DNA from: Pseudomonadota bacterium
GTDB taxonomy: Bacteria > Pseudomonadota > Gammaproteobacteria > Burkholderiales > Rhodocyclaceae
NCBI GenBank assembly: GCA_039805725.1
Contig: JBDLTT010000040.1
Span: 1,309 to 65,308, forward strand
Length of the DNA stretch: 64,000 bases
Direction: 5' to 3'
The position numbers and the translations under genes are program-made. Under the pieces are notes generated by a model, which was given only the letters and a program-made list of their open reading frames with translations, ran no database searches and was not told where the DNA came from. The first letter of the stretch is position 1. Every line of letters begins with the position of its first letter. Positions 50,629-62,371 of this stretch are shown one piece after another.

Positions 50629-50910
50629 TCAGCGTAGTAGCCACCATTTGCCGAGCCCCAGAGCCAACCAGAGCGAAAGCAGCGCAAAAAACAGCAAAAT
50701 TTCGCGGGCTGCAAAGCCACCTCCTGGCCAGAGCTTGCCGATCAGACTGCGGGGCGGCTGCAGAATCGTGTCAAACAAGCGCAGTACGGCGTTGCCTTTG
50801 CCTGCCTGGCCGGCCAATAGCGCGAGCAGCGCCCGGCCAACGACAATCCAGACGATCAACTCAATGACCGCACGTAATGCTACCAGGGCAAAGAGCACTC
50901 CCGAGGTCAT
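50629..50910 (-). CDS. Small membrane protein, YggT-like
   Basis: Two hydrophobic segments around NAVLRLFDTILQPPRSLIGKLWP; ATGA overlap with the symporter stop. Confidence 0.7.
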   Translation of the reverse strand: MTSGVLFALVALRAVIELIVWIVVGRALLALLAGQAGKGNAVLRLFDTILQPPRSLIGKLWPGGGFAAREILLFFALLSLWLALGLGKWWLLR

Positions 50911-53243
50911 TGCTCATCAACGCCAAATTCACGATCCAGGCGGTTCATCCAGTAGGCGTAAATAGCGATCAGCAGTAGATAAACGATCAATGCGCCTTTA
51001 GCACCAATCATGTAACCCAGCGGTAATCCGAGCAATATCCATTGATCCAGCCAGCGCGCAGCAAAACTGGCCACGAAGGTCACCATAAACCAGATACCAA
51101 GCAACAAAAGCGTTCCGGACAAGGTTTTGAGCCAATACCGGCGCTGCTGTTGGCGGAGGGAGTCTGGACCATGCCCCTCCTCGACACCCAGTCCACGGCT
51201 ATAGAGAATTCTCGGGTAGCGCAAACGTTCGATGAACTGCTGCGCTTCGGCGGACGGCGGCGATGTAAGCAGGCTGACCAAAATGTTGGTCAAGAACCCG
51301 GCCGGAACGCCAAAGACGGCGGCTGCCGACGCCTCGATGCCGAACCAGGGATCCATACCGATACCGTACCAGCCTAGCCATGGAATACTGTCAAACCGGA
51401 CGCGCGCGATGTAATACACCGTCAGCGCCAGGCCCACGATGATCCCGGCGATCGCGCCGTGACGATTGGCGCGCGGCCAGAAAATCGCCAAAACCAGCGC
51501 CGGAAAGAGCGCCGCGCCCGATAGCGAGAATGCCCACGCCACCATGTCGACCAGCGTCGCCGGTCGCTGCACCGCGATGGCGGCAGCGACAATGGCTACC
51601 GTCACCAACACGGATTTCGAGACGATCAGCCGCCAGGACGAGGATGCATCGGGCCGCAACATCTTGAAATAAATATCGTGCGAAAACGCCGAGGTGATCG
51701 ACAACAGCAATCCCTCCGATGTCGATAAGGCGGCCGCCAGGCCGCCGACCGCCACCATGCCGGAAATGACATACGGCAGACCGGCGATCTCGGGCGTGGC
51801 AAGCACAATCACATCGGGGCTGATCGACAGTTCCGCCCACTGCATCAGATGGTCATGATTGATGTCGTCGAATGAGAAGAGACCGATGCGCGCCCAGGCA
51901 CTGACCCATGCCGGCATAGATTCAATCGGTGCGCCGATCAAATGTTGCATAACCTCCAGCTTGACGAAAATGGCGTAGGCCGGCGCCAGCAAAAAGACCA
52001 GCACCACAAAGAACAAGGTCCAGAACACGGAGCGTCTGGCCTGACTGACGCTGGCGATACTGTAATAACGCATCAGCAAATGAGGCAGGGATGCCGTACC
52101 AATGGTCAGACAAAAAACGAGTGCCAGGAAATTGATGCGGCTGTGCGCATTGTCAGGCAGCGCAAAGGCTTTGAGATCATCCACCGGTGTTGCCGATCGA
52201 CGTTTGGCTTCCCTGGCATCTGTTCGCCAAACGGCATGCGCTTCCTGGGCCGTCAGTGGCATTTGCCGTCGCTCTCGCTCTAGCTGAACGATATCGCGCG
52301 CAGGCGCATCCGTCGCCTTCAACCGCTCGATTTTTTCCGTCAGATGCTTGCGCTCGTCGGCTAGCGATTGCGGCAATCCCTCAATTTTGGCTTCAAGAAC
52401 TCGTGCCCGTTGCTCATAAAGCTGACGGACTGCAACCTCGTCGGGGCGGTTGAAAATCTCGTGTTCGAGCGTCACCAGTTGATGCATCGCCTCTGCATAC
52501 AGCACGGGCGGTGCAGGCACACCCGTTTTATCAAATGCCAGGATGGTGATCGGGGTGATGTAAGCGATCAGCAGAATAACGTACTGTGCCGCCTGGGCGT
52601 GCATGAGCGCCCGCATGCCGCCGAGAAAAGAGCAAACCAGCACGCCGGCCAATCCGAGATAGACGCCGATTTCGAACTGCAGGGTAATGAATCGACTGGT
52701 GATGAGCCCAACGCCATAGACCTGCGCAACGACATAAATCAGCGAGGCGATGATGACCGCAAACGCCCCCAGCAATCGGATCGTCTGGCCGCCGTAACGT
52801 GCGGCCAAGAAATCGGGCAAGGTGTACTGTCCGAATTTACGCAAATAAGGCGCGAGTAACAGCGCCAGCAAGACATAGCCGCCGGTCCAGCCGATGACGA
52901 AGGCCAGCCCTTGATAACCTGACTGATAAAGCGCACCAGCCAGGCCAATAAAGGAGGCAGCCGACAGCCAGTCAGTACCGGCCGACAGGCCGGCATACAT
53001 GGCGGGCACGCGGCGGCCGGCCACAAAATATTCGGCGACATCGGAGGTGCGGGTAAAGAGCCCCACCAACGAAAATACCAGCAGCGTCAAGAAAAGAAAG
53101 ACGTAACCGATCCAGCGATCACTGAGCCCTTGGCTCTCAAGCCAACCCAGCACAAGAATTGACGCGACAAAGCCAACGGCAAATAGTGTCACGAATACTG
53201 CAGGGCCATAGGCGCCGAGCAATAGCCGCAGTCGGTTTGCCAC
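50907..53243 (-). CDS. Sodium:solute symporter (ActP/VC_2705-like) with C-terminal fused DUF4212-like small subunit
   Basis: YFVAGR, DWLSAASFIG, GWTGGY, APYLRKFGQYTLPDF, GTASLPHLLMRYY, LRYP; tail RYW...IWFMVTF...GLPLGY...KGALIVY...MNRLDREFGV. Confidence 0.88.
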   Translation of the reverse strand: MANRLRLLLGAYGPAVFVTLFAVGFVASILVLGWLESQGLSDRWIGYVFLFLTLLVFSLVGLFTRTSDVAEYFVAGRRVPAMYAGLSAGTDWLSAASFIGLAGALYQSGYQGLAFVIGWTGGYVLLALLLAPYLRKFGQYTLPDFLAARYGGQTIRLLGAFAVIIASLIYVVAQVYGVGLITSRFITLQFEIGVYLGLAGVLVCSFLGGMRALMHAQAAQYVILLIAYITPITILAFDKTGVPAPPVLYAEAMHQLVTLEHEIFNRPDEVAVRQLYEQRARVLEAKIEGLPQSLADERKHLTEKIERLKATDAPARDIVQLERERRQMPLTAQEAHAVWRTDAREAKRRSATPVDDLKAFALPDNAHSRINFLALVFCLTIGTASLPHLLMRYYSIASVSQARRSVFWTLFFVVLVFLLAPAYAIFVKLEVMQHLIGAPIESMPAWVSAWARIGLFSFDDINHDHLMQWAELSISPDVIVLATPEIAGLPYVISGMVAVGGLAAALSTSEGLLLSITSAFSHDIYFKMLRPDASSSWRLIVSKSVLVTVAIVAAAIAVQRPATLVDMVAWAFSLSGAALFPALVLAIFWPRANRHGAIAGIIVGLALTVYYIARVRFDSIPWLGWYGIGMDPWFGIEASAAAVFGVPAGFLTNILVSLLTSPPSAEAQQFIERLRYPRILYSRGLGVEEGHGPDSLRQQQRRYWLKTLSGTLLLLGIWFMVTFVASFAARWLDQWILLGLPLGYMIGAKGALIVYLLLIAIYAYWMNRLDREFGVDEQ

Positions 53244-53247
53244 CCTT

Positions 53248-54315
53248 TTAGATCCGATAGGTCAGCTTCAGGCGCTGCTGAAGACGCTTGGCCTGTTTCA
53301 GACCCTCACGGAGTACCGCCTCGTCATAAGTGCTGAGCTCTTCCGGATGCAGATGGTTATCCGGTTTGATGCCTTCGGTCATAGCACGATGCTGGTGGTT
53401 CAAACGTAGTCGCTGGAGTTCGGACATTGCCTGTAACGCAGCCGACACATCAAGTTCAGACATGCCGAACTTTTGTCCGGCTTGCAAAAAACGGGTACGG
53501 GTACTGGCCGACTTCACACCGTGCGCTAGCCCGATGATGCGACCCACATCGACAAAAATTCGGATACCGTACTTTTTAATGTCGACAAACTTTTCTTTGC
53601 CCTCCTTTTCCATGACCACATCCCCGGTAAAACCGATGGGTGGTTCGGCGGCCAGTGCATTGGTGGCCATCAGGCGCAGGAAGGTTTCTGCCGAGGGCGC
53701 CCAGCGCGCCAGCATTTCACGCAATGGGTCGACCATCGAAAAATCGCCATAGAGGGGGCGCACATCGAAGAAGATCGACGCATTGAGCAAGGCCGAGGGC
53801 TCTGGCTTGTGGATCCAGTCAAAGAAGAGCGCCTTCCATTCGTCTTCTGATCGGCACCAGGCCGGATTTCCCGCCATGATGTCACCGGAACACAACGTGA
53901 AGCCACAATCGGCCAGCCGCTGATTGGTTCGCTTAGCAAATGGCAGAAACACTTCACGTAAGAGATCGGCTTCGCGTTCATCGGAGGCTGAAAAAATCAG
54001 GCCATTGTCCTGGTCGGTGACCAACGTTTGCTCGTGTCGCCCTTCCGAGCCCAGACCAATCCAGCACCAGTTGGCCGCCGGCAAACGTGCTTCTTCAGCA
54101 GTGATGGCAACGACACGTGCAGCCAGCGCGTCGTTCAGCCATGAAATGCCGTAGGTCGCCAGCGCCCCCGTTAGCCCATCATCGAGAAAGGTCTGATCAA
54201 TCCGCTGTGCCTCTTCTGCCAAAGGCAGCAAAGCCGACATGCTGCTGGTTTTTTCAATTTTGGCCGCCAGCGTCTGTGCGCGATTGACGGCAAAGGTGTT
54301 ATCGCCGAAATTCAT
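53248..54315 (-). CDS. DUF294 nucleotidyltransferase with substrate-binding domain (GlnD/GlnE-like), no CBS or cNMP domains
   Basis: GSEGRHEQTLVTDQDNG (GS...DxD), CSGDIMAGNP, SIFFDVR, DIKK. Confidence 0.88.
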   Translation of the reverse strand: MNFGDNTFAVNRAQTLAAKIEKTSSMSALLPLAEEAQRIDQTFLDDGLTGALATYGISWLNDALAARVVAITAEEARLPAANWCWIGLGSEGRHEQTLVTDQDNGLIFSASDEREADLLREVFLPFAKRTNQRLADCGFTLCSGDIMAGNPAWCRSEDEWKALFFDWIHKPEPSALLNASIFFDVRPLYGDFSMVDPLREMLARWAPSAETFLRLMATNALAAEPPIGFTGDVVMEKEGKEKFVDIKKYGIRIFVDVGRIIGLAHGVKSASTRTRFLQAGQKFGMSELDVSAALQAMSELQRLRLNHQHRAMTEGIKPDNHLHPEELSTYDEAVLREGLKQAKRLQQRLKLTYRI

Positions 54316-54316
54316 G

Positions 54317-56491
54317 TCAATACTTCACTTGAGCAAAATAGGTTTTCTGAGAGGCTTCGATGGCCTGACCGAGTGTCGTGATGCCACGATCGGCCAGCGC
54401 AGGCAACAATCGTACAAACACCTGAGCGGTCGCAGTTGCATCTGCAAGCGCGTTATGGCGCTGATCCATATGGATTCCAAGGCGCTGCATGATCGCCTCG
54501 AGGCTATGGCTCTCCTGGTTCGGATGCGCCACCGCAGACAACAACAGGGTATCGAGTACCGGTTGATCAAAACGCAGGCCCAGGGTGGCCTCCTTGATCT
54601 CGAGGAAACGCATATCGAATGCGACGTTGTGACCTACCAACACCGTATCCGCACAGAAATCATGGAAGGCCGGCAACACCTGATCAATCGTCGGTTGACC
54701 CAGCAGCACACTGTCGGTGATGCCGTGAATCGCCATACTCGCCGCCTTGAGGGGTATGCGGGGATCAACCAGCTGATCGAAATGTTCCTGCTGCAACAGC
54801 CGACCATTGAGAATGCGCAACGCACCAATCTGGATAATTTCATCGCCGTTGCCCGGCTCCAGGCCGGTAGTTTCGGTATCAAAGACCGTATAGACCAGAT
54901 CAGTCAGTGGACGCTCCAGATCCACCTGACCGAGCGGCCGGTCAAAGAGATCGAAGTCGTAATATTCAGGGCGTGAATCGCCATCGCGTACGATCAGTTC
55001 GACACGCTCATCCGGTGAGGCACGCGGGATGAGCAAACGCAGCGATGCCTGATTCGCCGCACGCTGTCGTTGATACCAGATCTCGCCCCCATGCCGATCC
55101 AGCACTTCGCGCAGGGTGGGCGGGTTGACGCCGTGTCCATCGCGCATCGGCTCAATTTCCCAAGACAATACCGTCTCTGAGGACATCGACAAACCCAGCC
55201 AGAGTAGATCGATGTGTACAAAACGTTCGTCGCTACCCAAAGCGAGTGTCAGCGAACGAACCTCACCACTTTCTTCAATACGTGACGCCAGGAAGGTGAG
55301 TGCCGATACCAATGCAAAGCTGTCTGCCCGCACCCAAAGCGCTTCGGGTGTATCCGTTTGCAGGTTAACAGGAATCTTCAGCCGGGATTCGATCCGGCGG
55401 CTCGCCGCTTCCAGTATATCGGCCGCCATCATGTCATCCAGCGGCCAGTTCTGACGCAGCGAATCGGCGACTGTTTTAAGTGTCATATCCAGACGTTCGC
55501 TCATGCGCTTCACTTCTGACGACAAGACCCCGATAAACCGGTCACGATCCTGCGGTGCCATCTCGGGGTTGTCAGCCAGCATTTCCACTGCGGCGCGCAG
55601 CGTGCCCAGCGATGCACGACTCCCCTCCGTTAGCTCACCCAGGGCAGCATCACGTTTGGCATCTTGCTCCAGAGCACGCGTGATATTTTCAATGAGCAGA
55701 ATGTAGCCTGAGGCCGTCTGTATCCCTTCCAACTCCCGTAACACGGGCGCGATCTGCACGCGGATCAATTGGCTGCTATCGGTCGTTGTTACAAAGTTGG
55801 CGATAGCATGGCGATTACCCCGCTCCAACTGGATACGAATCGTTTCCCGCGCGTAATCGACCTGGCTGGCCTCAAGAATCGAGCTAATGGAACGCCCCAA
55901 CCCAATCAGCGCACCACTCGAAACCGAAGTCGGCCCCTTGGCCAGCGACTCGAACATAAATCGTGCACGATTGTTATAGAGCAGAATTCGCCCGTCCAGA
56001 TTACAAACCACGACAGCCTGCGCCAACTCAGACATCAGTGCTGCCAGACGATTCTTTTCTTCTTCGACATTACTCTTGGCTTTGGCAACCTGGGCTTCTA
56101 CGTCATCGATATAGGCATCACGCTGGGTTGCCAGATCGTTAATCGCGCGCACCAGCTCACGGAGCTCTGGTGGGCCCTCTTCCGTAATACGAAAGGAGCG
56201 ATTCGAGCCCAGCATCAGGCGCAATTCTTCGACCATCGCCGCCATTCCCGTCACATAACGGTTAAACAGGCGGCGAACCAGGGCGAGACCCAGAACAAAC
56301 CCCGTTGCTGTCAGAACACCGCCTAACGGCACCTGGGGCAATAAATGCTGAACCAGTACCTCACGCATACCGGGGGATGCACCAGCCCAGATCAATACAG
56401 AGGTCAGTAGGAAGGGGCCCGTCATCAACATGCCGAGCACCAACACAGCAAGGACGAAACGCCACTTGGCCTTTAGATCACGCAAAAACAT
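54317..56491 (-). CDS. Membrane PAS / pseudo-histidine-kinase / DEDDh 3'-5' exonuclease fusion protein
   Basis: 2 TM, HAMP-like segment, PAS (AVVVCNLDGRILLYN), His-less DHp, then VFDTETTG, GHNVAFD, HNALADA. Confidence 0.88.
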   Translation of the reverse strand: MFLRDLKAKWRFVLAVLVLGMLMTGPFLLTSVLIWAGASPGMREVLVQHLLPQVPLGGVLTATGFVLGLALVRRLFNRYVTGMAAMVEELRLMLGSNRSFRITEEGPPELRELVRAINDLATQRDAYIDDVEAQVAKAKSNVEEEKNRLAALMSELAQAVVVCNLDGRILLYNNRARFMFESLAKGPTSVSSGALIGLGRSISSILEASQVDYARETIRIQLERGNRHAIANFVTTTDSSQLIRVQIAPVLRELEGIQTASGYILLIENITRALEQDAKRDAALGELTEGSRASLGTLRAAVEMLADNPEMAPQDRDRFIGVLSSEVKRMSERLDMTLKTVADSLRQNWPLDDMMAADILEAASRRIESRLKIPVNLQTDTPEALWVRADSFALVSALTFLASRIEESGEVRSLTLALGSDERFVHIDLLWLGLSMSSETVLSWEIEPMRDGHGVNPPTLREVLDRHGGEIWYQRQRAANQASLRLLIPRASPDERVELIVRDGDSRPEYYDFDLFDRPLGQVDLERPLTDLVYTVFDTETTGLEPGNGDEIIQIGALRILNGRLLQQEHFDQLVDPRIPLKAASMAIHGITDSVLLGQPTIDQVLPAFHDFCADTVLVGHNVAFDMRFLEIKEATLGLRFDQPVLDTLLLSAVAHPNQESHSLEAIMQRLGIHMDQRHNALADATATAQVFVRLLPALADRGITTLGQAIEASQKTYFAQVKY

Positions 56492-56559: not shown

Positions 56560-56925
56560 TCAGGCCAGCACCTCGCGGATCTTAACCACCAGATCCTTGG
56601 TAGAAAACGGCTTCAGCATATAGGCATCGGCGCCAAGCGCCAGCCCCTTGGCTTGCTCCGTATCGCGTCCCTTGGCGGTGAGCATAATGATTTTGAGTGA
56701 TGCCAGCGACGTATCGGCTCGCAGAATCTCGCAAACCTCGAACCCGGATTTCTTGGGCATCATCACGTCGAGCAATACCAGGTCGGGGTTAAAGCTGCGG
56801 ACTTTATCAATCGCCGCATCACCATCCCCGGCAGTATCAATTTGGAAACCTTCCTTCTTGAGCAGAAACTCTAGTGACATCACGATATTAGGTTCATCGT
56901 CGACAATGAGGATCTTATGGGTCAT
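56560..56925 (-). CDS. Single-domain response regulator (receiver only)
   Basis: IVDD, LLDVMMP, LTA, KPF; 121 aa from ATG 56925 after AAGGAG. Confidence 0.93.
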   Translation of the reverse strand: MTHKILIVDDEPNIVMSLEFLLKKEGFQIDTAGDGDAAIDKVRSFNPDLVLLDVMMPKKSGFEVCEILRADTSLASLKIIMLTAKGRDTEQAKGLALGADAYMLKPFSTKDLVVKIREVLA

Positions 56926-56941: not shown

Positions 56942-59695
56942 TCATGCATCTGACAATGGAATGGTAAAGAGGAAGGTGGAGCCGGATTCGATCTCATCGC
57001 CAGCGGCAGTGGTGCCGCCCGTCGTGCTCTCAACCCAGAGTTTGCCACCAAAGTGTTCAATAATTTCTCGGCTAATCGGCAGCCCAAGCCCGGTACCCTG
57101 GGGCTTATCGGTCATGGTATTGCCGCCCTGGCGAAATCGTTCGAAGATGATTTCCTGATAAGCCTCCGGGATACCGGGGCCGTTATCATGTACTGCCACG
57201 ATGGCAAAACCATTACTGCGGCTCAGGCGCACCGTGATACGACCGTTGCCTTCCGGTACGAACTTCACGGCATTAGACAATAGGTTGATGATCACCTGCT
57301 TGATTCGGTCCCGATCCACATCCACCAGCACCGGCAGATTATCTTCTGGCAGGGTGATCACACAGTCCGCACCGCGTGTCCGGAAGAGCTGACCCAGAGA
57401 CGCTGCTGTCTCGTCAACCAGTTCACGCAAATCCAGTTGCTCAACCAGCCAATCGACCCGACCGGACTCCAGCTTGGCAAAATCGAGAATCTGGTTGATC
57501 AGCCGGGTCAGACGCTCGGCCTCCCCGACGATGATGCCCAGAAACCGCGTACGGTCCTCTTCTGCCATCTCCGGGTCGGCGTGCAGCATCTCGGAAAACG
57601 CACGAATCGAGGTCAATGGTGTGCGCAGTTCATGGGTCACCGTCGACATAAAGTCGTCTTTCAGCCGATCAACTTCCATCAACTTATCATTGGCGGCACG
57701 CAGTTCACGACTCGCTTCTTCCAGCTCTGCCGATTTGCGTTCCAGTTCCCGCGAGTGCGCACGCACCTGAGAAGCCTCATCCAGAATGTTCAGCACCTCA
57801 TCAAAACCGAGCTCTTCTTCCTGAACGACAGAACTGACCATCACATGGGCGCTGGCAGAGCCAATCGTACCGGCCAACTGTGTTTCTGCAAACATCACAA
57901 AATCAGCATCCGCTTTGAGTTCGCCAATTTTGCCAATCCCACGATCCTTGGCGTAGCGCTGCAATCGACTCTGCGCCTGTTTGGGTCCCAGAAAACGCTT
58001 AAGCAACTCGATCAGGGAGTCTGCAGAGGCCGTACCACGCCATATTTTTGGCGCGAGCGATACCGAACTGTTGATGTTGACGAATTGACTGGCTGTTGCT
58101 AATTCATTGGCATTCTGTCGGGTCAGCATGGAGACAATCACATATCCACCCAGGTTGAATAGGAGGCTCCAGAACAGCGAGTGTGCGATCGGATCCAGGG
58201 TTGTTAGACCAAACAAACCATGCGCCGCCAAGCCATCGATGCCCCACGGCCCTTGCGTAATGAAATCACTTGCGATCCAGCCTGATTTACCAAATGAGGG
58301 TAACAGCGCCGTATAGAGCCAGACGGCAAACCCCAACAGCAGCCCGACCATCGCTCCCTGCCGATTACCTTCTTTCCAGTACATACCCCCCAACAGCGAT
58401 GGTGCAAATTGTGCGACCGCCAGAAACGAGATGAGTCCAATCGATACGAGCGCGTACGCCTCACCGGCAAAGCGGAAATAGAGGTAGCCCAGAAAGAGCA
58501 GAAACACAATGGTGCAGCGACGAATCAACATGATCACGCCGCTCAGATCTTTACGGGTCGTGAAATCGAAGCGGCCATGCAGCAGAATTGGCATCACCAG
58601 GTCATTGGAAACCATGGTCGCCAGGGCGATCGTCTCTACAATCACCATACCGGTTGCCGCCGACAACCCCCCCAGGAAGGCCAACATCGCCATCGCATTG
58701 GTACCCTCGGCGAGTGGCATGGTCAGAACCAGGGTGTCTGCTTCGAAAGCTTGTCCATTGAACTGAATCAGTCCCGCCAGCGCAATCGGTAAGACAAATA
58801 TATTGATCAGCAAAAGATAAAGCGGAAACATCCAGACCGCCCGCCGCATATGTGTTTCATCAACGTTTTCTACAACCGTAATCTGGAACTGCCGAGGCAA
58901 CATCAGAATGGCCAAGCCGGAAAGTAATGTCAGCGCAAACCAGTTACCAAAATTAATCGATTCCGGCTGTAACAAACGGGCAATTGCCGGAATGGCCTCA
59001 GCGCGGGCGAAAAGGTCACCAAAACCGTCGTTCAGATACCAGACCACATAGGCGCCGACGGCAAGGAAGGCAATGAGCTTGAAAACAGATTCAAACGCGA
59101 TGGCCAGCACCATGCCCTCATGGCGCTCGGTCACATCCAGATGACGCGTACCAAAAACAATCGTAAACGCCGCCAGAATGATGGCAATCACCGCTGTCGA
59201 ATCCGGCATGAACGCCAGTGATTCCAACGCATCCGGAATCAAGGCCTGCGCATCGTCCGGGAACAAGATCTTGAGGCTATAGGAAATCGCCTTCAATTGC
59301 AGCGCGATATAGGGAATAATCCCCACCACGGCAATCACGGTCACCAGTCCCGCCAGCAACTGGCTCTTGCCGTAGCGCGCCGCAATAAAATCAGCGATCG
59401 ACGTCAGGCGCAACGTTTTGCTCACGCGGATCATCTTGAGAATGACGGCCGCAAACAGGAACATGATCGTCGGGCCGAGATAAATGGTCAGGAAGCTAAA
59501 ACCACCCGTGGTAGCGCGCCCCACGCTACCGTAAAAGGTCCACGATGTGCAGTACACAGCGATCGCTAAGGCGTAAACCGTCGATGTAATCACCGAACGC
59601 CCGGCATCCGCACGACGATCGCCGAAGCGGGCAACGGCAAACAAAAGACCCAGATAGACAAAGGTCAACAGCGCGACGACCCATGTTGCAATCAT
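56942..59695 (-). CDS. SLC5(SSS)-STAC sensor histidine kinase (CrbS/CbrA-like)
   Basis: AVYCTSWTFYGSVG, LPRQF, STAC-like FAETQLAGTIGSASA, H-box THELRTPL, NLLSNA, DNGPG, GTGLGL. Confidence 0.92.
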   Translation of the reverse strand: MIATWVVALLTFVYLGLLFAVARFGDRRADAGRSVITSTVYALAIAVYCTSWTFYGSVGRATTGGFSFLTIYLGPTIMFLFAAVILKMIRVSKTLRLTSIADFIAARYGKSQLLAGLVTVIAVVGIIPYIALQLKAISYSLKILFPDDAQALIPDALESLAFMPDSTAVIAIILAAFTIVFGTRHLDVTERHEGMVLAIAFESVFKLIAFLAVGAYVVWYLNDGFGDLFARAEAIPAIARLLQPESINFGNWFALTLLSGLAILMLPRQFQITVVENVDETHMRRAVWMFPLYLLLINIFVLPIALAGLIQFNGQAFEADTLVLTMPLAEGTNAMAMLAFLGGLSAATGMVIVETIALATMVSNDLVMPILLHGRFDFTTRKDLSGVIMLIRRCTIVFLLFLGYLYFRFAGEAYALVSIGLISFLAVAQFAPSLLGGMYWKEGNRQGAMVGLLLGFAVWLYTALLPSFGKSGWIASDFITQGPWGIDGLAAHGLFGLTTLDPIAHSLFWSLLFNLGGYVIVSMLTRQNANELATASQFVNINSSVSLAPKIWRGTASADSLIELLKRFLGPKQAQSRLQRYAKDRGIGKIGELKADADFVMFAETQLAGTIGSASAHVMVSSVVQEEELGFDEVLNILDEASQVRAHSRELERKSAELEEASRELRAANDKLMEVDRLKDDFMSTVTHELRTPLTSIRAFSEMLHADPEMAEEDRTRFLGIIVGEAERLTRLINQILDFAKLESGRVDWLVEQLDLRELVDETAASLGQLFRTRGADCVITLPEDNLPVLVDVDRDRIKQVIINLLSNAVKFVPEGNGRITVRLSRSNGFAIVAVHDNGPGIPEAYQEIIFERFRQGGNTMTDKPQGTGLGLPISREIIEHFGGKLWVESTTGGTTAAGDEIESGSTFLFTIPLSDA

Positions 59696-59925
59696 GACGT
59701 GCCCCGGTCGACGTTTGATTTGAGCTGCCCACTGGTCGACGGCTCGGTGATGCGGCGCGCGATGAGAATCACCGCCAACCACCATACAAAGAGAAGCACA
59801 TAAAGTAACGGCCAATCACCCACACTACCGCGATACAGCGAAAGCAATGGGTAATTGAATACCAGCAGAGACACAAAGCCGATGACCCCCAGCTTGAGCA
59901 AGGTCTTCTGCATGGCTTTGGGCAT
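59692..59925 (-). CDS. Small two-TM membrane protein coupled to the kinase
   Basis: AAGGAG RBS; FNYPLL...WPLLYVLLFVWW; ATGA overlap with kinase start. Confidence 0.8.
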   Translation of the reverse strand: MPKAMQKTLLKLGVIGFVSLLVFNYPLLSLYRGSVGDWPLLYVLLFVWWLAVILIARRITEPSTSGQLKSNVDRGTS

Positions 59926-60111: not shown

Positions 60112-62067
60112 TTAGCCCTTGAGCTGCTCAAGGATATGCGGGTTTTCCAGCGTCGAGGTATCTTGCGTGACTTCCTCACCCTTAGCCAGGGAGCGGAGCA
60201 GACGACGCATGATCTTGCCCGAACGGGTCTTCGGCAGGTTCTCACCAAAGCGGATGTCTTTCGGCTTGGCGATCGGACCGATTTCCTTACCTACCCAATC
60301 CGACAGTTCCTTGATGACCTTCTTGGCTTCATCTCCGGTCGGGCGCGAACCCTTCAGCACGACAAACGCCACAATCGCTTCACCGGTCAGATCATCCGGA
60401 CGGCCGACCACCGCAGCTTCGGCCACCAGCGGATTTGCCACCAGCGCCGATTCGATTTCCATGGTGCCCATACGGTGACCCGACACGTTCAGTACGTCAT
60501 CGATACGACCGGTAATGGTGAAGTAACCATTTTCGGCATCACGGATAGCGCCGTCACCGGCCAGATACAGCTTGCCACCCAGATCTTCCGGGAAGTACGA
60601 CTTCTTGAATCGATCAGGATCGCCCCAGACCATACGAATCATCGACGGCCAAGGCTTCTTCACGACCAGGATACCGCCCTGACCCCATGGCACTTCGTTG
60701 CCGGTCTCGTCGACCACGGCGGCCTGGATGCCCGGGAACGGCAGCGTGCACGAACCCGGCACCAGCGGCGTTGCACCCGGCATCGGGGTGATCATGTGAC
60801 CACCGGTTTCGGTCTGCCAGAAGGTATCGACGATCGGGCAGCGGCCGCCACCCACGTTCTCGTAGTACCACTCCCAGGCGGCCGGGTTGATCGGCTCACC
60901 GACCGAACCCATCAAGCGCAAGCTCGACAGATCATACTTCTTCGGATGGATCGCCGGATCAGCATCGGCCGCCTTGATCAGCGAACGGATGGCGGTCGGC
61001 GCGGTGTAGAAAATATTAACCTTGTGCTTCTGAATCATGTCCCAGAAACGGCCGGCGTTCGGATAGGTCGGCACGCCTTCAAACACGACTTCGGTACCAC
61101 CACACGCCAACGGGCCATAGGTGATATAGGTGTGGCCCGTGACCCAACCGATATCGGCCGTGCACCAGAAGACGTCTTCTTTCTTCAGGTCGAAGGTGTA
61201 GAGCATCGTGAGCATGGCGTGCAGCAGGTAACCGCCCGTCGAGTGCTGAACGCCCTTCGGCTTGCCGGTCGAACCCGAGGTGTAGAGCAGGAACAGCGGA
61301 TGCTCGGCTTCAACCCAGACCGGATCACACTTGTCCGACTGCTTGTCGACCACATCACTGGCCCATACGTCGCGGCCAGCCGTCATATTAACTTCGGTAC
61401 CCGTGCGCTTGAACACCAGCACTTTCTTGCAACCGTCACAGCCACCCATACCAAAAGCTTCATCGGCGATGGCCTTCAGCGGTAACGCCTTACCACCACG
61501 GAACTGACCGTCGGTGGTCACCAGCACCTTGGCGCCGGCATCTTCGATACGGTCACGCAGCGACTGCGCCGAGAAGCCACCGAACACCACCGAGTGCGTT
61601 GCGCCGATGCGGGCACAGGCTTGCATCGTAGCAATGCCATCAATCGTCATCGGCATGTAAATAATGACGCGATCACCCTTCTGTACACCCAGCTCCTTCA
61701 GTGCGTTGGCAATCTTGCAAACGCGAGCCAGCAGTTCTTTGTAAGTGACTTTGGTCACCTGGCCATCGTCGGCTTCGAAGATGATTGCAACTTTGTCACC
61801 CAGACCTTTTTCGATCTGACGATCCAGACAGTTGTAGGAGGCATTCAGCTTGCCATCAACAAACCAGCCGTAGGTCGGCGCCTTCGACTCGTCGAGTGTC
61901 TTGGTAAACGGGGTTTGCCAGCTTAGTAGTTCCTTAGCGCGCTTGGCCCAGAAACCCTCGTAATCTTTTTCTGCTTCGGCACACAGCGCCTTGTACCCAT
62001 CCATGCCCGAAACTGCAGCGTTCTTCACGAAATCCGGGGACGGTTGGTACACCTTGGCATTCGACAT
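60112..62067 (-). CDS. acs: Acetyl-CoA synthetase
   Basis: [44 protein letters not shown]. Confidence 0.98.
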
Positions 62068-62371
62068 GTTGCATCTCCTCGCTATTGTTAGATACTGCCT
62101 GGTTACTCCGAGATGCTTCCGCACTTCGGGCCGGCATCTAGGCGCCAGTTGCGGATTTGAGCAACCGGGCCGTACGCTGGGTACGGGATCATTTAATGAC
62201 CTGAGCCTTACACCCTGCTTACACACCAAACCCTTTAATCACGCGGCTTTTATGTGGCGTCGCAGCAATAGCTCGATCGACGCCAAACCACCGCAAGCGC
62301 CGACTTTTTATTACAATTCAACTCACGCCGCGAGCGCCCTACTCAATCATCTTCGCCGTCCGGGAAAAAAC

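Follow-up and report, generated by a model that had tools for sequence, protein, structure and literature searches.

A membrane-anchored pseudokinase-exonuclease conserved beside a single-domain receiver and a DUF294 nucleotidyltransferase

Within the window (the whole 64,000-nucleotide stretch of DNA that was analyzed), a single gene joins a degenerate histidine kinase core to an intact nuclease domain. Its 724-residue product is modeled as a membrane-anchored sensor built like a class-I histidine kinase (two transmembrane helices, HAMP, PAS, DHp, and CA) with a C-terminal exonuclease. A linker motif (RPEYYDFDLF) retrieved 579 relatives; the family occurs in at least 579 species and in ∼10% of the sampled Pseudomonadota, and a literature search found no paper describing such a fusion or family. 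On balance we lean toward an explanation in which the receiver encoded next to it binds the dead kinase and thereby controls an exonuclease acting jointly with the adjacent DUF294 protein. The gene row is as follows.

60112..62229, minus strand: acetyl-CoA synthetase, head of the gene row (Pfam ACAS_N, AMP-binding, AMP-binding_C)
56942..59815, minus strand: SLC5-type transporter-like histidine kinase with intact HisKA and HATPase_c and with His728 (Pfam)
56560..56925, minus strand: single-domain response regulator of 121 aa, directly upstream, 68 nt before the pseudokinase-exonuclease (Pfam Response_reg 1.8e-28, synteny)
54317..56491, minus strand: pseudokinase-exonuclease gene, 724 aa, stop codon at 54317-54319
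53248..54315, minus strand: sensor-less DUF294 nucleotidyltransferase of 355 aa (Pfam DUF294 and DUF294_C)
50907..53243, minus strand: sodium:solute symporter with a C-terminal DUF4212 segment, end of the gene row (Pfam SSF, DUF4212)

The transporter-like kinase probably starts at a Met at about 59695. A promoter and terminator scan of the row returned nothing above shuffled expectation.

Domain architecture and the degenerate kinase core

The AF2 model of the pseudokinase-exonuclease (pLDDT 89.2, pTM 0.78), together with sequence and profile searches, divides the protein into the following parts.

56276..56488, minus strand: two transmembrane helices, approximately residues 2-72, with a loop of ∼17 residues (hydropathy, AF2 model, profile)
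56030..56275, minus strand: HAMP and signaling helix, approximately residues 73-154 (Pfam, AF2 helices, Foldseek WalK/VicK)
55682..56029, minus strand: PAS domain, approximately residues 155-270 (Pfam, family alignment, AF2 model, profile)
55466..55681, minus strand: DHp-like helical hairpin, alpha1 271-307 and alpha2 313-342 (BLASTP, profiles, AF2, Foldseek)
55625..55627, minus strand: Glu289 codon at the phospho-acceptor His position (alignment to the neighboring kinase, family column)
55007..55465, minus strand: degenerate CA (HATPase-like) domain, residues 343-495, without N, G1, or G2 boxes (profiles, AF2)
54896..55006, minus strand: flexible linker with the family-specific motif at residues 507-516 (AF2 pLDDT, family conservation)
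54320..54895, minus strand: DEDDh 3'-5' exonuclease domain, residues 533-724 (Pfam, PDB profile match, Foldseek, catalytic residues)

The transmembrane helices correspond to hydropathy windows 10-36 and 54-72 and to long helices at residues 2-37 and 40-96 of the model, and the family profile matched the TM-HAMP region of the HtrII transducer. The Pfam HAMP match was weak (E 0.031), with model helices at 40-96 and 108-154. The PAS domain carries the family motifs VCN.DGRILLYN.RAR and GLGRS, matched the WalK PAS (4mn5) at 1e-7 in the profile search, and has the best conserved core of the sensor, with N173 and G197 invariant and C163, Y172, G199, R200, and S201 nearly so. Behind it, the model places a DHp hairpin at residues 271-342 and an alpha/beta CA domain at 352-491. 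The linker fell below a pLDDT of 50 at residues 497-517, and its residues R507, D512, F513, and L515 are nearly invariant in the family.

Pfam returned no HisKA or HATPase_c match in this protein at E<0.1, and the kinase fold was recognized by structure and profile comparison. The top Foldseek matches of the model were WalK, VicK, YF1, and ThkA (E 4e-20 to 8e-13 for WalK, VicK, and ThkA), and the family profile matched VicK (1e-21), ThkA (5e-13), and DivL (4q20; 3e-7) in the PDB. The HAMP-PAS-DHp-CA kinases WalK, VicK, and ThkA share the domain order and fold (best structural and profile matches 9a5d, 4i5s, and 3a0r); unlike them, the protein analyzed here has no acceptor His, ATP motifs, or phosphatase motif and bears an added C-terminal nuclease.

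In a gapless 49-residue alignment to the neighboring kinase, Glu289 falls opposite His728 (codon 57632-57634) and 20 positions are identical; when every genomic frame of 150 aa or longer (2303 in all) was scanned exhaustively without gaps, the runner-up segment reached 14/49. BLASTP of the pseudo-DHp against the kinase region found 26/84 identities (E 3e-10) with a second segment over the G2-box and C-terminal strand, and hhalign of the two family profiles gave a probability of 98.9% (E 3e-17) over 216 columns spanning DHp and CA. These three comparisons rule out chance similarity. The identity is family-wide but modest (12-20/49, median 16, over 72 loci; ∼33%), and a genome-specific resemblance, as by gene conversion, is not supported, this genome merely standing at the high end of the range. 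In the hhalign columns the N-box Asn is variable or Arg, the G1 motif DNGPG has become W.G.., and G2 (GTGLGL) is not conserved; the phosphatase motif E/DxxT/N is absent from the DHp. Among 104 family representatives the His column holds E in 60, D in 9 (E or D in 69/104), Q in 8, A in 6, R in 6, and H in 2, and the two His-bearing proteins are not leftover true kinases, as they also have no N, G1, or G2 boxes. Relative to this column, Gly predominates at +1, Ala or Ser occupies +4, and Arg is conserved at +3, as are the positions in lower alpha1 that the kinase also has. Thus, of the features of a class-I HisKA kinase, the DHp hairpin and CA fold are present, and the phospho-acceptor His and the N, G1, and G2 boxes are absent, leaving a kinase fold with a non-phosphorylatable His-site residue that is conserved across orthologues, as in a DivL-like pseudo-histidine kinase. 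With Glu for His, no ATP-binding boxes, and no phosphatase motif, the core is, as judged from sequence, catalytically dead.

The initial annotation had placed the reading frame at 54317-56491, the Glu at 55625-55627, and the kinase His at 57632-57634, and had counted 20/49 gapless identities by hand; all of these are exact. It also described an ATPase-like region lacking N-box and DxGxG motifs, which the hhalign columns bear out, and proposed checks of the DHp-CA fold and of His loss in orthologues: the model, Foldseek, and profile searches place a DHp-CA unit behind HAMP-PAS, and the loss is consistent through the family.

The exonuclease domain and its DUF294 partner

The C-terminal domain matched Pfam RNase_T at 5e-35, the family profile matched the PolC exonuclease (2p1j) at 2e-50, and Foldseek returned the PolC, DinG, and epsilon exonucleases. 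All five DEDDh residues are present (D538 and E540 of the Exo I DxE, D626 of Exo II, and H679 and D684 of the Exo III Hx4D motif) and are conserved in 100-102 of the 104 representatives, in agreement with the earlier statement that the three motifs are intact, and the domain is predicted to be a live 3'-5' exonuclease. A proofreading identity was rejected. The domain scores 111.6 bits against the DnaQ equivalog model TIGR01406 (cut-off 222.7 bits), whereas the true dnaQ of the genome, on another contig (C52:16698-17378), scores 302.1 bits; the DnaQ label is therefore wrong, as had been anticipated when such a name was called misleading. In a tree, a long, fully supported branch parts the DUF294-linked exonucleases from dnaQ.

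These results bear on the idea that the protein is simply a DnaQ paralogue, a housekeeping exonuclease for DNA or RNA with a decayed sensor and no signaling role. Database names of its relatives ("DNA polymerase III subunit epsilon" or "3'-5' exonuclease") speak for it, as does the fact that the closest solved domains are the PolC and epsilon proofreaders. Against it stand the separate dnaQ, the bit scores, the tree, and the fixed gene context; moreover, the sensor half recurs in at least 384 clusters (50% identity, E<1e-30) and is modeled at high confidence, and so is not decaying. We regard this idea as close to refuted.

The exonuclease gene lies beside that of a DUF294 nucleotidyltransferase in an acs, SSF-permease, and SLC5-kinase context, and the DUF294 ATG follows the exonuclease stop codon by 1 nt. 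By sequence, the DUF294 protein had no match among solved structures; its likeness emerged from a fold search, in which the AF2 model (pLDDT 94.5) had as its only significant Foldseek neighbors GlnE AT-C, GlnE AT-N, and DrrA-Rab8a (E 3e-7 to 3e-6, TM 0.61-0.64). In four sampled genomes an exonuclease, two CBS domains, and DUF294 are fused in single frames of 712-745 aa, so that a protein folding like the GlnE adenylyltransferase domains is joined there to a hydrolase. GlnD likewise unites a transferase and a removing domain in one protein, although for removal GlnD uses an HD domain and GlnE a second NTase domain acting by phosphorolysis, neither of which has the DEDDh fold.

Because DUF294 folds like GlnE and DrrA and is fused to exonucleases, the speculation that the exonuclease has an NMP-peptide substrate gains some ground. 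In its boldest form, which we consider improbable, the DEDDh domain would act in vivo as a protein de-nucleotidylylase and not as a nucleic-acid exonuclease, erasing an AMP or UMP mark placed by DUF294 on a protein of the machinery for acetate uptake and activation (Acs, the permease, or the kinase) under the control of the phosphorylated receiver acting through the dead kinase. We know of no DEDDh domain that takes an NMP off a protein. If true, this would be a two-component system with a reversible protein nucleotidylylation cycle as its output and a new eraser fold.

Gene linkage, proposed receiver docking, and competing explanations

The order acs, kinase, receiver, pseudokinase-exonuclease, DUF294, and permease is kept across Rhodocyclales and Burkholderiales. 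In 74/86 loci the gene immediately upstream encodes a single-domain receiver. The same holds for 14/15 loci from genomes sampled across the phylum, also where the kinase is missing or lies elsewhere; the transporter-like kinase itself is present in 74/86. No receiver gene immediately precedes the relatives without DHp-CA, namely TM-PAS-exonuclease proteins (L112-L114), short forms, and fusions with DUF294; in the tree L112 and L113 group with a receiver-linked, DHp-CA-bearing member of the same taxonomic family. The short, PAS-only, and DUF294-fused forms came from a whole-genome search; a protein-database search for short stand-alone relatives yielded almost only full-length members cut at contig ends. 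Solo copies with no receiver, kinase, or DUF294 nearby occur in Accumulibacter (L014, L018, L029, L034, L035, and L051) and at L106, and therefore the module can work without these proteins or uses partners encoded elsewhere; these copies count against the docking explanation favored below.

In the explanation that we favor, the pseudokinase-exonuclease would be a dimeric sensor and the effector of the neighboring two-component pair. The transporter-like kinase would sense a small carboxylate and phosphorylate the output-less 121-aa receiver, which, we infer, would dock on the retained DHp-like bundle as DivK does on DivL. The resulting change would run through the degenerate CA domain and the RPEYYDFDLF linker to switch the exonuclease allosterically, and HAMP and PAS may supply a second input. 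The exonuclease and the translationally coupled DUF294 would act as opposing partners, one adding and one removing, on a substrate that bears a nucleotide and is linked to the uptake and activation of acetate. Given that genes for a carboxylate-sensing kinase, an output-less receiver, and a GlnE-like nucleotidyltransferase accompany the family, the two-component system here probably controls a nuclease and not a transcription factor.

Docking of the receiver, proposed in the initial annotation, drew indirect support from the receiver adjacency, from the relatives that have neither DHp-CA nor an upstream receiver, and from the adjacent kinase, which is the best or only kinase match to the pseudo-DHp in this genome and four complete genomes (a weak match, E about 0.025, when each genome's own pseudo-DHp is the query). 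Prediction of a complex of two DHp-CA copies and the receiver hints only weakly at docking: it scored 0.43 (best of three controls, 0.00), past a mark that was reached by 58/80 solved complexes and 2/110 mismatched pairs, but passes at 0.60 or below comprised only 7/80 solved complexes and both passing mismatches. The runs agreed in at least 86% of contacts, with partner pLDDT of at least 81, and the pass may reflect prior exposure of the predictor, because kinase-receiver complexes have already been solved. The pseudo-DHp is far more variable than the kinase DHp and the receiver alpha1 helix is almost invariant across loci, which is not as a strictly shared docking surface would predict; the near-invariance of alpha1 also made a receiver/pseudo-DHp covariation analysis unfeasible.

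That surface variability would suit an autonomous sensor nuclease, in which HAMP-PAS senses its own signal, the dead DHp-CA is only a scaffold for dimerization and transmission, and the receiver acts elsewhere, for instance by draining phosphate or on a different target, its linkage reflecting co-regulation only. The conservation of the PAS core, the TM-PAS-exonuclease relatives that have neither DHp-CA nor receiver, and the orphan copies in Accumulibacter point the same way. Such independence would nevertheless leave unexplained an output-less receiver that is immediately upstream more steadily than the kinase, a DHp-CA whose presence tracks that of the receiver, and the conserved Arg at +3 and kinase-shared lower alpha1 positions, and we judge it unlikely. 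We hold it quite doubtful that the pseudokinase instead forms a heterodimer or higher-order complex with the transporter-like kinase in the membrane, through the related DHp helices, tuning its kinase/phosphatase output or being switched by its conformation, with the receiver a kinase substrate only. Both proteins are membrane-bound, the kinase is usually encoded nearby, and its DHp is the nearest one in all of the genomes compared, with the strong hhalign match noted above. However, its position varies, it is absent within ∼9 kb on each side at L094, L097-L099, and L103 while the receiver-exonuclease pair is kept, and the DHp identity is only about one-third; the different membrane and linker modules (SLC5 vs 2TM-HAMP-PAS) argue for homodimers and against such a complex.

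Relation to known systems and significance

The comparison with DivL made at the outset is apt. DivL of Caulobacter crescentus (PMC4211667, PDB 4q20) and the pseudokinase-exonuclease are both membrane-anchored PAS-DHp-CA proteins with a non-phosphorylatable His-site residue and a genetic tie to a single-domain receiver, the transmitter core is proposed as the input in both, and in both loss of DHp-CA accompanies loss of the receiver. DivL, however, has Tyr at the His site and keeps its H, N, G1, F, and G2 boxes (PMC4211667), whereas the present protein has Glu or Asp and has lost all ATP boxes; DivL acts on the kinase CckA and carries no output enzyme, whereas here a DEDDh exonuclease is fused; and binding of the receiver (DivK~P) is demonstrated for DivL and is proposed here by analogy.

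In Pseudomonas putida, PP_0353 (a stand-alone exonuclease) and PP_0354 (cNMP-CBS-DUF294) rank among the genes that depend most strongly on the homologous MxtR/ErdR, that is, CrbS/CrbR (PMC9927547; PMC5715377; bioRxiv 10.64898/2026.09.07.749794). Deletion of the short Pseudomonas homologue gave no growth defect on acetate or succinate and a moderate one on propionate and pyruvate only (PMC9927547; bioRxiv 10.64898/2026.09.07.749794), which weighs against the favored explanation. In both settings an exonuclease, likened here to PP_0353 by the published description of an RNase_T-type domain alone, is paired with DUF294 and associated with acs, actP-type permeases, and a kinase of the SLC5 type. 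Pseudomonas couples the kinase to the pair by transcription, through a DNA-binding regulator, whereas the receiver here has no DNA-binding domain; and PP_0353 stands alone with the sensor domains on PP_0354, whereas here DUF294 is sensor-less and the exonuclease carries a 530-residue TM-HAMP-PAS-pseudokinase. In our tree, short DUF294-linked exonucleases (L108 and L109) fall with the pseudokinase-exonuclease family, apart from dnaQ, on long branches whose order within the group is unsupported.

Current annotation of the family ("DNA polymerase III subunit epsilon," with the nuclease as the only precomputed Pfam domain) overlooks the sensor half. Two-component systems are known chiefly for control of transcription, c-di-GMP turnover, or motors. 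An output-less receiver hard-wired in at least 579 species to a nuclease-bearing dead kinase would be DivL-style reversed signaling with an enzymatic output. The finding bears on a question in the acetate-switch field, the role of the exonuclease/DUF294 pair, for which the fusions, together with the GlnE/DrrA-like fold of DUF294, suggest as a candidate a nucleotide add/remove cycle and possibly protein AMPylation.

Gene row and predicted fold

The pseudokinase-exonuclease gene lies within a row of genes that share one direction.

60112-62229 (-), acetyl-CoA synthetase
56942-59815 (-), SLC5-type transporter fused to an intact HisKA/HATPase_c kinase
56560-56925 (-), 121-aa receiver without an output domain
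54317-56491 (-), pseudokinase-exonuclease, ORF of 724 residues
53248-54315 (-), DUF294 nucleotidyltransferase, 355 aa
50907-53243 (-), sodium:solute symporter with a DUF4212 tail

The receiver stop codon is 68 nt from the pseudokinase-exonuclease start, and the TGA of the latter is separated from the DUF294 ATG by 1 nt; a promoter and terminator scan of the row gave no signal exceeding shuffled expectation. The source genome is a 1.44-Mb assembly (completeness 83%), and close relatives bear the name Fluviibacter (Rhodocyclales). At the start (56477-56491), most homologues begin at the position matching ORF residue 6; as judged from the alignment, the annotated ATG may precede the true start by five codons, or the window's lineage may carry a short N-terminal extension. 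The DUF4212 segment is at the C-terminus of the symporter (Pfam residues 700-776) and in relatives follows the permease (Dechloromonas/Azonexus type) or precedes it (Zoogloea type).

An AlphaFold2 model of the pseudokinase-exonuclease, built from alignment A1 (104 full-length representatives), had a mean pLDDT of 89.2 and a pTM of 0.78 and contained the following parts.

two long membrane helices
HAMP and signalling helix
residues 159-269, PAS domain
residues 271-307 and 313-342, helical hairpin
residues 352-491, alpha/beta domain
residues 497-517, disordered linker
residues 533-721, exonuclease

The top Foldseek matches were whole sensor kinases (WalK 9a5d, VicK 4i5s, YF1-type LOV kinases, and ThkA 3a0r), with the PolC, DinG, and epsilon exonuclease domains matching the C-terminus. 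The family sequence profile matched VicK (1e-21), ThkA (5e-13), HK853, and DivL (4q20, 3e-7) in the kinase part, HtrII in the TM-HAMP part, and the PolC exonuclease 2p1j (2e-50). Model, Foldseek, and profile thus concur on the DHp-CA fold proposed in the initial annotation. Pfam recognized RNase_T as the sole clear domain, the HAMP and PAS signals being weak. Residue 213 (about 55853-55855) is Tyr at a position where the family PAS domain has a nearly invariant His (consensus HAL).

Kinase core and nuclease residues

Ungapped alignment of the DHp segments of the protein and the neighbouring kinase gave 20 identities in 49 residues, as originally counted, and the next-best 49-mer in an exhaustive scan of the genome (all frames of 150 aa or longer) gave 14/49. 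Glu289 (codon 55625-55627) occupies the phospho-acceptor site, which is His728 in the kinase (codon 57632-57634). BLASTP aligned 84 residues of the two proteins (E 3e-10), with a second matching segment at the end of the CA domain, and hhalign matched their family profiles over 216 columns across DHp and CA (probability 98.9%, E 3e-17). In these columns the target family lacks the Asn of the N-box, the G1 motif (DNGPG vs W.G..), and the G2 box, so the reported absence of the N-box and G1 motif holds and extends to G2.

Among the 104 representatives, the residue in the His column is E in 60, D in 9, Q in 8, A in 6, R in 6, and H in 2, a loss of His that is consistent among orthologues; 97 of them retain the Arg at +3. 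Gly predominates at +1, and +4 carries Ala or Ser; therefore, the E/DxxT/N phosphatase motif is also absent. The DEDDh set, described earlier as intact, is complete (D538, E540, D626, H679, and D684), and its residues are conserved in 100-102 of the 104. Together, the His column, the lost boxes, and the kept DEDDh residues indicate, at the level of sequence, that the kinase core of this family is old, conserved, and dead and that the nuclease is live. Residual true kinases were also considered; both His-bearing representatives still lack the ATP boxes.

With the sensor half as sole query, 384 clusters formed at 50% identity were retrieved (E<1e-30), almost all of them with lengths of about 700-745 aa, and the linker motif RP[EVA][FY][YF]DF[DN]L occurs in at least 579 species genomes. 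In an even phylum sample, 44 of 401 genomes (16 of 212 genera), other classes among them, matched at E<=1e-20, a few of these matches spanning the PAS part only.

The nuclease and its DUF294 partner

The warning that a DnaQ label would mislead was justified: the nuclease domain scored 111.6 bits against a dnaQ cut-off of 222.7, and the real dnaQ, on another contig of the genome, scored 302 bits, which excludes a proofreading DnaQ. The nuclease-domain tree places a long, fully supported branch between dnaQ plus a dnaQ-like control and the DUF294-linked exonucleases, the backbone among the latter being unresolved.

A sequence search with DUF294 against solved structures gave no match. Its AF2 model (53 homologues, alignment A4; pLDDT 94.5) had as its only significant Foldseek matches the GlnE adenylyltransferase domains 3k7d and 1v4a and the Legionella DrrA AMPylation domain with Rab8a, 6yx5 (E 3e-7 to 3e-6, TM 0.61-0.64). 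All three are protein AMP-transferase folds; the model therefore favours a protein target for the DUF294 writer, and a nucleotide-removing role for the fused nuclease would be worth testing.

When 301 genomes were searched with the nuclease domain as sole query and flanks were then fetched, three further forms were found, all beside DUF294 and SSF-permease genes.

L108 and L109, stand-alone exonuclease, about 240-250 aa
L112:6300-7748(-), L113:5488-6888(+), and L114:6378-7883(-), 2TM-HAMP-PAS-exonuclease (PAS match and TM segments), 467-502 aa, no room for DHp-CA
L115:5003-7138(-), L116:6311-8464(+), L117:6375-8510(+), and L118:6049-8283(+), exonuclease (RNase_T), two CBS, DUF294, and DUF294_C in a single frame (Pfam), 712-745 aa

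The single-frame fusions are Rosetta-stone evidence that exonuclease and DUF294 act together. An SLC5-type kinase adjoins two of these four frames.

In P. putida, PP_0353 (exonuclease) and PP_0354 (a cNMP-CBS-DUF294 protein) share one operon that is under direct MxtR/ErdR (= CrbS/CrbR) control and among the most strongly dependent genes; the deletions grow normally on acetate and succinate and have moderate defects on propionate and pyruvate, and the authors state the function to be unknown (PMC9927547; bioRxiv 10.64898/2026.09.07.749794; PMC5715377).

Linkage to the receiver and the proposed mechanism

In 80 Rhodocyclales/Burkholderiales loci, acs, kinase, receiver, pseudokinase-exonuclease, DUF294 (often two copies), and permease occur in nearly constant order. 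The receiver is directly upstream in 74 of 86 target frames, the remainder being mostly contig ends or a second, orphan Accumulibacter copy. In 15 phylum-sample loci the order becomes acs, permease, DUF294, receiver, target, kinase; 14 of them keep receiver and target as a pair, five of these 14 without a kinase in the flanks (about 9 kb each side), and the DUF294 partner bears CBS, or cNMP plus CBS, sensor domains. The window has a single sensor-less DUF294 gene (53248-54315, minus), and many Rhodocyclales loci (L003-L041) have two tandem paralogues that share about 50% and 40% identity with it. In Accumulibacter (L014, L018, L029, L034, L035, L051; G004:C1:3612639-3614785), an orphan copy has no receiver, kinase, or DUF294 nearby, and a second copy adjoins a 921-aa kinase.

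No receiver was directly upstream of any stand-alone, PAS-only, or DUF294-fused form in the flanks inspected, and the tree groups two PAS-only forms with a member from their taxonomic family that has DHp-CA and is linked to a receiver. In this small sample, the DHp-CA module and the receiver come and go together; a co-occurrence argument of the same kind was made for DivL and DivK (PMC4211667).

A search with the window's pseudo-DHp returned the adjacent kinase as the only other match in the window's genome and as the best kinase match in four complete genomes; when each genome's own pseudo-DHp was used, the adjacent kinase was still the sole kinase found, weakly (E about 0.025). Over 49 residues, the two DHp segments share 12-20 identities (median 16, 72 loci). 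The kinase DHp and receiver alpha1 helix are almost invariant, so no covariation is left to analyse, and the variability of the pseudo-DHp opposite an almost invariant alpha1 counts against the docking surface being strictly shared. Prediction of two DHp-CA copies with the receiver (separate alignments A2 and A3) passed at a score of 0.43 (best of three controls, 0.00), with contacts agreeing at least 86% between runs and partner pLDDT at least 81. In calibration, 58 of 80 solved complexes passed the mark, as did 2 of 110 mismatched pairs; passes scoring 0.60 or less came from just 7 of the 80 and from both of these mismatched pairs. Because kinase-receiver complexes have already been solved, the pass may reflect likeness only, and it weakly favours the receiver on DHp-CA.

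Of the initial interpretation, the fold of a dead kinase, the consistent loss of His, and the mis-annotation stand; linkage and phyletic pattern give good reason to propose receiver docking. For a kinase core converted to a sensor of a single-domain receiver the precedent is DivL, in which Tyr occupies the His site and all ATP boxes are retained (PMC4211667); the present protein instead has Glu289 and has lost N, G1, and G2. A literature search found no paper describing a pseudokinase-exonuclease fusion. Most likely, a carboxylate-sensing kinase would phosphorylate the bare receiver; docked on the dead kinase, this receiver would gate the DEDDh nuclease, which would work with the GlnE-like DUF294 transferase. 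The protein combines known kinds in a new form, a DivL-type pseudokinase with an acs-linked exonuclease/DUF294 pair.
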